Shown: positions 14,936 to 17,360, numbered from the stretch's first letter. The stretch is DNA of 64,000 nucleotides from Escherichia coli (GCF_030384885.1 NZ_CP128613.1), one strand, 5' to 3'. Made by a program: numbers and translations. The notes: generated by a model not told the origin, from the letters alone.

Positions 14936-15595
14936 TTAACCAATAATATGAAGTGATGTCAGTGGGATATCAACACCCAGTGCGCGCGAAAATAACCACT
15001 CCGGCTCGCCGAGATCGTTAAAAGATTCCTCACCATTTAACAGCAAATATTCACAGGTATCTTCGGTCACCTGCCGTTCATAGCCCATGGTAAAATTATG
15101 CACTTCCCATTTGGCGTGGTTTTGATTTTCAACTTTTTCCAGCATATAGACGGGTTCGATATTTCCCGGTTCTTCACTGTTAAAAAATCGCTGCCAGCGT
15201 TTTTCCTGCCAGTTTAATGTCATTGCCCCCATCGCTTTGGCGTTGATCGCTTCGCGCCAGTGGCTCTCTTTGCTGATACCGTAGCTCTCTTCATAGACAA
15301 AGAGCTTTATATCATCAATGTCATCAATATCTTCGCCGCCGGTGGTATTGATTTGCAGAAATTCATCGCCCGAAGTGTAGTAGCGGAAAATCTGACTACC
15401 GCCGCCCAGATCGATGTGGCTGACAGCGGCTACCGTAAATTCTTCACCCGGCAGCGCAATCAGCAATTCATCTTCCAGCAAACGAAACGCTAACGTGTCG
15501 AGCGTAAAGCCGCTATTGAGATGAAGTCCCAGTGGGCCACGTGCGATTGCAGGTTTATCATCCTTACCAAACAGACGCTTGAAAAAACTTGTCAT
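14936..15595 (-). CDS. yjfK: DUF2491 protein
   Basis: 219-aa ORF; start codon overlaps stop of the upstream RCK-like ORF (ATGA). Confidence 0.9.
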   Translation of the reverse strand: MTSFFKRLFGKDDKPAIARGPLGLHLNSGFTLDTLAFRLLEDELLIALPGEEFTVAAVSHIDLGGGSQIFRYYTSGDEFLQINTTGGEDIDDIDDIKLFVYEESYGISKESHWREAINAKAMGAMTLNWQEKRWQRFFNSEEPGNIEPVYMLEKVENQNHAKWEVHNFTMGYERQVTEDTCEYLLLNGEESFNDLGEPEWLFSRALGVDIPLTSLHIIG

Positions 15596-16347
15596 ATGCT
15601 TCCCTCAATGTCCTGCCATGCCACTTCTTCAGCCAAAATACGGTTATTGCCAATAAGATGCAGCCACATACCGCCTTTAACTTCCGTTGCAATGACTGGA
15701 TTCAGTTCCATTCCCCTACCATTTTTACAACTGCTTATTCCCAGGACGGTGGCATCATGATGAAGTTTCATATAATGCATCAATGCGCCATAACGCATTG
15801 AGGTAACCCGTTCAGGAATCGGTAAAACAAACCCCGTATCCCCCAGCATTGGATTCATAATCGATGCCACTGATTGAGATGAACCGGGATCTTGTATTGA
15901 ACGGGAAAGTTGTTCTGCTGAAATATTTCGCACTATTTCAATACGTTGACAATGAACCTCTAATAAACGAGCGTAGCGTTCATCTTCCAGATAAGCGACG
16001 ATATGGCATCTTTCAGGAATAAAATCCGCCAGGGATAGTGCGGTCGTGAACGTCTGCTCATCTGTTTGCGAAAAGATGATGACACTTTGGCAATTTGCCA
16101 GTCCCATGCGGGTATGTTCATGCGGATCATTAAAATTACTAATACGAATGAAATCGACCCAATTATTTCCAGGCATCGGATGTTGAATATCATCCCGCTC
16201 ACACAAAAGTACCCGGCCAAATGCTCTTCGGGAATCAAACAACAATAATGAAATCATCTTTTCAGTCTGATGCCCGCGCCATCCAATGACCAGCATATGG
16301 TTGCGCAAATTGCTGTAGTCGCCCATTCCCGTCATTCCTTTCGCCAA
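15592..16347 (-). CDS. RCK/TrkA-N-like cytoplasmic regulatory domain protein, apparent C-terminal half of a Kch/MthK-type K+ channel; start ambiguous (TTG at 16347, ATG at 16335 or 16326)
   Basis: N-terminus HMLVIGWRGHQTEKMISLL fits the Rossmann beta1-Gly-loop-alphaA pattern of RCK/CASTOR-type domains; ORF is in the same frame as the pore ORF, 2 codons after its TAA. AAGGA lies 9 nt before the ATG at 16326. Not a gene I recall from K-12. Confidence 0.55.
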   Translation of the reverse strand: MAKGMTGMGDYSNLRNHMLVIGWRGHQTEKMISLLLFDSRRAFGRVLLCERDDIQHPMPGNNWVDFIRISNFNDPHEHTRMGLANCQSVIIFSQTDEQTFTTALSLADFIPERCHIVAYLEDERYARLLEVHCQRIEIVRNISAEQLSRSIQDPGSSQSVASIMNPMLGDTGFVLPIPERVTSMRYGALMHYMKLHHDATVLGISSCKNGRGMELNPVIATEVKGGMWLHLIGNNRILAEEVAWQDIEGSI

Positions 16348-16353
16348 TATGTC

Positions 16354-16662
16354 TTACACTAATGCAATGACTTTTCCCATTAAAGCGCCAAATAAACCAA
16401 CACTCACAGGAATCTGCCAGAGCGCTGTGAACAGACGTCCCCCCACCGTTTGGGGTGTGATATCACCAAACCCCAGCGTTGATCCCACAACCGAGCAGTA
16501 ATAAATAAAATTACTAAGTTGTCCTACCAACGCCTCTTCATGCAACGCAGTTAACACCAGATAACAAAACAGATACTGTCCTGTAAATAATCCAGTCAAT
16601 GCCGGCCAGGTAAGCCTGGAAAGGTGACGTCGGCAGGTTTTAATGATCCATGAGAAGAACAT
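16354..16662 (-). CDS. Two-TM K+-channel-like pore subunit (TM1, pore helix, TLGFGD filter, TM2), apparent N-terminal half of an interrupted channel gene
   Basis: 102-aa ORF: TM1 PALTGLFTGQYLFCYLVLTAL, pore helix and filter NFIYYCSVVGSTLGFGDITP, TM2 GGRLFTALWQIPVSVGLFGALMGKVIALV; ends at TAA directly after TM2. ATG overlaps yjfJ stop by 1 nt. Confidence 0.6.
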   Translation of the reverse strand: MFFSWIIKTCRRHLSRLTWPALTGLFTGQYLFCYLVLTALHEEALVGQLSNFIYYCSVVGSTLGFGDITPQTVGGRLFTALWQIPVSVGLFGALMGKVIALV

Positions 16663-17360
16663 TACTCGCCCTGTTGGCGTTGCAGTCTTGCTAATACATC
16701 CTGGGCGCTACTTTTGTTGCTACCGCCAATTCCGGCTTCCGCCAGTTTTTCATCAAGATCGCGACCATCTGCCACTTTTTCCAGCTGTACGGCAGCATCC
16801 AGGCGAGCTTGACGTTCGGCCTGACGCGTTTGCAGACGCTTTAAGGATTCTGCCGCTGTCGAAACGCTGGAAGATGCGCCAACAGTAGAGGTCGTTACGG
16901 CCTGTTGTGCACGCTGCATGGCTTCAGTAGCTTTAACGACTTCCATTTGTTGCTCAAACTGAGCGATACGCTGCGCTGTCGCTGTAACTGCTTTTTCCAC
17001 GCCATCACGAGAGACTTCCAGATTCGACAACACTTGCTCTTCAGCGGTAATAAGATTCTCAAGGCGCGCGATTTCTTCAGCAACTTCGTTAATCAACGAC
17101 GGATTAACGTTCTTGCTTAACGCTTCCAGCGCACGAGCTTCCAGACTGGCTTTGCGCTCACGTAAATCTTTCAGCTTATCGTGACTTAATTTCACCCGCG
17201 CCAGCAGATCAACGCGAGATTTTCCGGCTTTATCGAGTTCAGCTTTAGCGTCACGAATATGCTGTTCCAGCATGCGCACACCCTGGGTTTCTTCAATGGA
17301 TTCTTCCGCCTGAGAGATAAACGATTTCCCCAGCGTAAATAAACTTTTTAAAATTCCCAT
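16662..17360 (-). CDS. yjfJ: PspA/IM30-family coiled-coil protein
   Basis: 232-aa ORF MGILKSLFTLGKSFISQAEE..., PspA-like. Confidence 0.92.
   Translation of the reverse strand: MGILKSLFTLGKSFISQAEESIEETQGVRMLEQHIRDAKAELDKAGKSRVDLLARVKLSHDKLKDLRERKASLEARALEALSKNVNPSLINEVAEEIARLENLITAEEQVLSNLEVSRDGVEKAVTATAQRIAQFEQQMEVVKATEAMQRAQQAVTTSTVGASSSVSTAAESLKRLQTRQAERQARLDAAVQLEKVADGRDLDEKLAEAGIGGSNKSSAQDVLARLQRQQGE

Follow-up and report, generated by a model that had tools for sequence, protein, structure and literature searches.

A probable young nonsense allele of an accessory MthK-type potassium channel gene in an Escherichia coli clone

A potassium channel gene broken by a single in-frame TAA at codon 103 was found on the minus strand of the 64-kb stretch of Escherichia coli DNA analysed here (the window, 64,000 nucleotides). 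Our main reading, to which we give a probability of roughly 85%, is that this is a young, clone-specific nonsense allele (Q103stop) of an accessory enterobacterial MthK-type K+ channel gene, which has likely lost its gating and is an incipient pseudogene. The gene lies in an operon region with the order rnr-rlmB-yjfI-yjfJ-channel-yjfK-yjfL-yjfM-yjfC-aidB. Its features, in window coordinates, are as follows.

15592..16662, minus strand: channel gene frame, 356 codons, broken at codon 103; ortholog of RefSeq WP_000466338, 'potassium channel family protein'
16357..16662, minus strand: pore half, 102 codons, with N-terminal tail, TM1, pore helix, selectivity filter and TM2 (Pfam and MthK alignment)
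16462..16479, minus strand: selectivity filter T-L-G-F-G-D, codons 62-67 (direct sequence reading)
16354..16356, minus strand: premature stop TAA, codon 103 (from CAA, Gln103); the coding C-to-T change is G-to-A at plus-strand position 16356
16336..16341, minus strand: AAAGGA, codons K108-G109, Shine-Dalgarno-like (SD) (duplex energy and codon conservation)
16324..16326, minus strand: ATG codon 113, probable internal or re-initiation start of a free 244-aa RCK (ortholog codons and SD)
15592..16326, minus strand: RCK half from M113, 244 codons plus TGA (AF2 model and Foldseek)
16662..17360, minus strand: yjfJ (PspA/IM30 family), upstream gene, whose TAA overlaps the channel ATG by 1 nt (TAATG)
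14936..15595, minus strand: yjfK (DUF2491), downstream gene, whose ATG overlaps the channel TGA (ATGA)

The minus strand was read across the interruption. The ORF at 16662..16354 comprises 102 codons from the ATG at 16662 and ends with the TAA at 16356-16354. The same frame then continues as GAC ATA TTG(16347) GCG AAA GGA ATG(16335) ACG GGA ATG(16326), where the TTG at 16347 is L106, the ATG at 16335 is M110 and the ATG at 16326 is M113, and it remains open until the TGA at 15594-15592. The positions given for the stop and the following in-frame codons by the first-pass annotation were all borne out. Its read-through length of about 354 aa was wrong, as the frame holds 356 codons (102 + 1 + 2 + 251), exactly the length of the 356-aa intact orthologs. 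The linker of about 19 residues that it described holds, with TM2 ending near V102 and beta1 of the AF2 model occupying residues 122-126. The interrupted pore/RCK frame is real, far beyond chance; except for one base, it is the annotated intact 1071-nt CDS of strain 2013C-4282. No internal promoter-like or terminator-like site was found inside the channel gene on the coding strand.

The pore half matched Pfam Ion_trans_2 over residues 42-103 (E=1.7e-10) and aligned to MthK, TOK1 and K2P channels. This two-TM pore carries the K+ signature T-x-G-[YF]-G-D in the form TLGFGD (residues 62-67), of which G64, F65, G66 and D67 are nearly invariant across the family. For the RCK half, Pfam returned only a marginal TrkA_N match (E=0.039), and searches of this half alone against the PDB gave no matches, either by phmmer or by an 18-sequence profile. 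An AlphaFold (AF2) model was therefore the source of the fold assignment, the C-terminal RCK domain with its Rossmann-like N-lobe and C-lobe being recognised through the structure model while sequence evidence was weak or absent. The model, for which an 18-sequence family alignment was the input, showed an alternating beta-alpha N-lobe and a C-lobe (pLDDT 82, pTM 0.77). Foldseek placed MthK RCK domains and gating rings first (E ~3e-10, probability 1.0) and Slo1/BK and CASTOR/DMI1 rings next, with overall E values of ~1e-9 to 1e-10 and TM ~0.5. Taken with the Pfam and MthK alignments, these matches support the MthK-like architecture of 2TM pore, linker and RCK that had been proposed for this locus. 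Pore and RCK lie on one polypeptide in all orthologs and not in the window, where the TAA cuts the linker; as read from its codons, the window allele cannot encode the canonical tethered channel.

The product was compared with MthK of Methanothermobacter thermautotrophicus, a Ca2+-gated channel (PDB 1LNQ, 6OLY, 2AEF) of 336 aa against 356 here. The two share one layout, in which a short N-terminal tail and a 2TM pore are followed by a linker of about 18-19 residues and a single RCK domain, and residues 6-300 aligned by HMMER to MthK 4-285 (E ~1e-7), although overall identity is ~17-18% and the filter is TVGYGD in MthK and TLGFGD here. Both also have an in-frame start codon with an SD in the linker, M113 lying 14 residues and MthK M107 15 residues before the beta1 GW. 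In the low-identity HMMER alignment, 'EAERY' of MthK pairs with 'EDERY' here (residues 226-230) and E210/E212 with E226/E228, whereas D184 pairs with F197, so that the Ca2+ site is not fully conserved. D184, E210 and E212 are the Ca2+ ligands of MthK. The aligned residues hint at a related but non-identical ligand site. The N-terminal motif C/R-R-H-L-x-R-L (residues 5-17, window 16600-16650) is nearly invariant and aligns with RKHLPRV of MthK, which is part of its 'desensitization domain' (PMC2573919). Further differences from MthK are the bacterial origin of the gene, its place in a PspA-like/polyamine operon and, in this window's allele, a stop codon that severs the tether.

Kch of E. coli K-12 (NCBIfam PRK10537) is likewise an RCK-regulated K+ channel of E. 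coli, but it has 6TM instead of 2TM and is encoded at a different locus. The match to the PRK10537 profile was weak (residues 45-256, E=1.2e-8), and an assignment as Kch ortholog (NCBIfam NF007828 / PRK10537 equivalog) was rejected, with 34.4 bits against a curated cut-off of 425. A published gene neighbourhood of DUF2170, PspA_IM30, channel, DUF2491, DUF350, DUF1190 and GSP_synth is the arrangement seen here, and the channel of that PspA_IM30 neighbourhood almost certainly belongs to the same gene family. The published work covers the association only, and describes neither the presence/absence polymorphism in E. coli nor the internal start signal nor the nonsense allele.

The ancestry of the stop was examined in other carriers of the gene. 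A megablast search of 5,426 complete E. coli genomes found the channel gene in 18, every one of which has CAA at codon 103 and a single annotated 1071-nt CDS (356 aa); the products are named 'potassium channel family protein' (WP_000466338 and four close variants). The closest allele is that of strain 2013C-4282, from which the window gene differs solely at coding position 307, where C to T creates the TAA. Across the entire 64-kb window, 3 SNPs and 1 indel separate the two genomes, the stop being one of the SNPs, and this near-clonal match indicates that the stop is very recent. All the non-stop differences are a TTT (Phe) versus CTT (Leu) at ulaG codon 330 (window 8225), a homopolymer (A7 versus A8) shortly before the blc start (window 50307-50313), and a G versus C within aspA (window 60013).

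Sequences from other taxa were 15 in number, namely 11 loci from named taxa (a second Escherichia lineage, 3 Citrobacter, Salmonella, Enterobacter, Serratia microhaemolytica, 2 Atlantibacter, Buttiauxella and Scandinavium) and 4 metagenomic relatives. In all of them the ORF is fused and 355-362 aa long, and codon 103 is CAA or CAG (Gln), or CGA (Arg) in Scandinavium, so that the sense codon expected in orthologs at the stop position was seen in every ortholog examined. Orthologs in at least eight genera are fused, usually at the same operon position. Among the 18 intact E. coli alleles, 10 of the variable sites are synonymous and 4 are missense, indicating that the intact gene is under purifying selection where present. 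The window allele thus has what is expected of a pseudogene or nonsense allele, a derived premature stop in a frame that close relatives and outgroups keep open. Polarised by 17 other E. coli alleles and 8 other genera, the stop is derived, and the normal, ancestral state is a single fused 356-aa polypeptide. Of the three explanations put forward in the first-pass annotation, a nonsense-interrupted channel gene is therefore the one supported, with all orthologs sense at this codon and the nearest genome's gene differing by one base.

The TAA was also recovered outside the window. Exact look-up of the 102-aa product found it in contigs from five different SRA runs, namely SRR35948513, SRR34489103, SRR35967224, SRR34938331 and SRR30938853, four of them identical to the window across 2.5-5 kb and one with two additional SNPs, in yjfJ; all five runs may represent one clone. 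At least 1,000 contigs carry the intact protein, against 1 listed for the 102-aa product and 3 for the 244-aa product. The TAA is a real, rare allele. A sequencing or assembly error, in which the true base would be C and the gene intact, could appeal to the single-base difference from the nearest complete genome and to the A7 versus A8 homopolymer, a typical error type, among the four differences from 2013C-4282. This explanation now retains almost no credibility, because the exact TAA is found in five assemblies from different SRA runs and what changed is one base in non-repetitive sequence rather than the length of a homopolymer. Two ENA metagenome contigs, L024 (ERZ27234138) and L025 (ERZ27259879), stop at codon 102, short of the site of the TAA, and were excluded as TAA evidence. 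In both of them the break falls directly before the C/T polymorphic base and resembles a de Bruijn (assembly-graph) branch, which would point to the presence of both alleles in the samples concerned. An exact search of JGI metagenomes with the pattern GTGYAAGAC, which covers either allele, returned 0 matches and was uninformative.

The distribution of the gene was then considered. In 5,408 of the 5,426 complete E. coli genomes (~99.7%), the 1,071-nt channel gene is absent and a 50-nt yjfJ-yjfK spacer is found instead. Salmonella, Citrobacter and Enterobacter carry it at this place in the operon, which suggests an ancestral gene that most E. coli have since lost. The spacer carries its own AAGGA SD for yjfK, and that of the K-12-type strain DH1Ec095 (L045:1560-1609; window 15595-16662) contains an inverted repeat, GCCAGCCT...AGGCTGGC, a hairpin. 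The 18 carriers are mutual best matches over a 20-kb flank, with 98.6-100% identity. In Enterobacter hormaechei (L046, CP058160.1), the channel gene is cut at about residue 190 by a DDE-transposase IS element, and a second IS copy adjoins a truncated yjfJ. The IS disruption is an independent inactivation, consistent with a dispensable, sporadically decaying gene. Two further members of the family alignment (P0026 and P0030) are apparent frameshift-truncated variants. In Scandinavium (L039, L040), the channel gene has an MFS transporter gene on one side and aidB on the other, with yjfI/J/K/L/M/C absent in the stretch fetched, indicating that the channel is able to exist outside the PspA-like operon. 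A predicted 207-aa Salmonella protein (P0033) joins the last ~86 channel residues to the N-terminal part of YjfK (PF10679), implying that the channel stop in the ATGA overlap was lost or bypassed in some Salmonella assembly. Overall, this is a dispensable accessory gene that is sporadically lost, of which the window is one very young instance.

Initiation downstream of the stop had been proposed to give a free RCK domain. Computational evidence supported this for codon 113 (ATG 16326) and not for TTG 16347, which has essentially no SD, or ATG 16335, where the spacing is zero. ATG 16326 lies 27 nt downstream of the TAA, with nine nt between it and the last base of AAAGGA; the predicted duplex with the anti-SD stops 8 nt short of the ATG and has an energy of -5.6 kcal/mol, comparable to those of yjfK (-6.1) and yjfL (-5.5). 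Gene callers picked ATG-113 in the TAA contigs.

The conservation of this start was assessed in the 16 enterobacterial orthologs for which DNA was available. Codon 113 is ATG in 10 and TTG in 6. TTG is the start-capable Leu codon commonly used in bacteria, and all six Leu residues at codon 113 are TTG, whereas other invariant Leu columns use 3-5 different codons. Codons 108-109 are AAA GGA in 13 of the 16, the purine-rich SD is kept in the variants AAG GGA and GGA GGA, and one ortholog has AAA GGT. G109 is GGA in 15/16, which makes it the most codon-conserved of the 60 invariant columns with at least 4-fold degeneracy (next best 11/16), while the neighbouring G112 and G127 use 3-4 codons. The spacing of GGA, three codons and start is invariant throughout. 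When 347 codon columns were scanned without bias, four were start-capable in all 16 orthologs, and codon 113 alone had a conserved SD at a functional distance, with a mean of -6.0 kcal/mol against a gene mean of -1.7 (sd 1.9). SD energy alone is unremarkable, as 13% of windows in the gene are equally strong. A sliding-window analysis of synonymous entropy showed no regional dip at codons 105-113, where few conserved columns qualify, and the synonymous signal is confined to codons 108-109 and 113. In a set of 128 distant homologs with 25-36% identity, every member has G112 and many have M at 110, and position 113 is unconserved (L 26, M 21, K 21), which narrows the internal-start claim to the enterobacterial subfamily. 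With this restriction, the codon patterns incline us, by a little, towards a native internal start at codon 113 in the subfamily. The internal start of Kch is reportedly M240. The precedent claimed for MthK is documented in the literature (PMC2920069), a free RCK being made from internal Met107 and co-assembling with the tethered RCK (PMC2920069, PMC2573919).

For the window allele, we propose that ribosomes would terminate at the TAA and release a 102-aa pore-only subunit with a complete pore module, the derived UAA cutting the linker one residue after TM2. Starting or restarting 27 nt on at ATG-113 via AAAGGA would then produce a free 244-aa RCK of ~27 kDa, AAAGGA/ATG-113 being the putative native internal start of the subfamily, comparable to MthK Met107. 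Because ribosomes terminating at the TAA would be 27 nt from ATG-113 with the SD in between, free RCK should still form. The translational coupling of yjfK through its overlapping start would be kept, and polarity would thus be limited. Without a covalent TM2-RCK tether, the RCK ring would be unable to pull the inner helices. In MthK, gating requires the covalent linker that pulls TM2, and the pore-only protein conducts with a much lower open probability (PMC6879586). The net effect would most likely be a loss of ligand gating with the pore mostly closed and unregulated, leaving an allele that is functionally null or a weak leak, the incipient pseudogene of a gene already lost by most E. coli.

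The position of the stop bears on whether selection was involved. The intact gene can undergo 146 single-base nonsense changes, of which 5 (3.4%) fall in codons 103-112 and leave both modules whole; among transitions to nonsense, 1/32 falls in these codons. That the stop fell in this interval would not be predicted from a purely random lesion; the coincidence is mild and post hoc, and insufficient to argue selection. The allele has no secondary lesions, so that neutral decay and selected change are inseparable by sequence alone.

Other explanations accept the TAA as real and give it a different meaning. Adaptive loss, in which this lineage benefited from inactivation of the gated channel and positive selection favoured the stop as a knock-out, would fit with the absence of the gene in 5,408/5,426 complete genomes, the IS disruption in E. 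hormaechei and the toxicity of misregulated RCK channels in high K+, as in the Kch 'loose cannon' mutants (PMC2234077). The mostly synonymous variation in the 18 carriers (10 versus 4 missense), which indicates purifying selection where the gene is present, and the lack of a sweep signal in a single rare allele speak against it, and we regard it as unlikely. A still less probable account is that Q103stop is a working natural 'split MthK', formed by a pore-only tetramer and a free RCK ring from the native codon-113 start, and perhaps retained because the ring or the low-open-probability pore still serves the YjfIJ-KLMC envelope-stress/polyamine operon. In a wider form of this account, the enterobacterial subfamily and archaeal MthK may share a dual-product strategy, in which tethered and free RCK come from one gene. 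Read-through or an ochre suppressor tRNA could in principle restore the full-length protein and make the stop phenotypically silent. UAA followed by G is an efficient terminator in E. coli, and the stop here is UAA then G. The only tRNA genes in the 64-kb window are three tRNA-Gly(GCC), with no suppressor tRNA among them, and folding of the junction was no more stable than that of shuffled sequence (z = +0.84), giving no stimulatory RNA structure; we give this explanation next to no weight.

An evolved two-gene channel, with pore and gating ring separately encoded, assembled non-covalently and separated by a selected stop, was also weighed. The stop does fall in the 10-codon interval from TM2 to the internal start, which receives ~3% of the nonsense mutations that are possible, there is a usable SD and ATG 27 nt past the stop, free RCK is a natural component of MthK (PMC2920069), and the one TAA contig with two extra SNPs places the allele in more than one strain. 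However, every ortholog examined is fused, the stop/restart arrangement is found in 0/18 complete E. coli carriers and 0/15 other-taxon sequences, and an exhaustive representative search gave 108 clusters at E<=1e-30, nearly all of them 340-360 aa and fused. The RCK-only-length homologs checked as natural split candidates, P0029 (244 aa), P0072 (237 aa) and P0134 (236 aa), with starts at 110-113, were rejected as contig-edge artefacts because they lie 14-68 nt from a contig end and their upstream frame is open; P0041 and P0046 proved to be plain partials. In addition, the allele is rare and one base from the intact allele with no adaptive follow-up changes, and gating in MthK needs the covalent linker, the pore alone having a low open probability (PMC6879586). 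The first-pass annotation had taken a stop shared by orthologs in many genomes as the mark of an evolved split; the stop is common to no ortholog examined, which is the opposite, and no split ortholog was found among those checked. An evolved two-gene channel is thus very improbable, and a young nonsense allele with likely loss of gating is the explanation that we prefer.

These results point to an ordinary young lesion in a known kind of protein, not an evolved two-part channel. In annotation, the locus should accordingly count as a single potassium channel gene of 356 aa in the form of a pseudogene or nonsense allele, and not as two genes. Strain 2013C-4282 with CAA and the window clone with TAA form a natural near-isogenic pair in which the in vivo effect of an untethered pore plus a free RCK could be studied. 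As Kch RCK mutations ('loose cannon') deregulate the channel and make cells K+-sensitive, with toxicity in high K+ (PMC2234077), these mutants are a guide to the possible phenotypes of an untethered pore. The AAAGGA-N9-ATG at codon 113 is a testable internal start in an uncharacterised enterobacterial MthK-like channel. The biological value of the nonsense allele is modest, and the by-product of its analysis is a conserved candidate for an internal start, analogous to Met107 of MthK.
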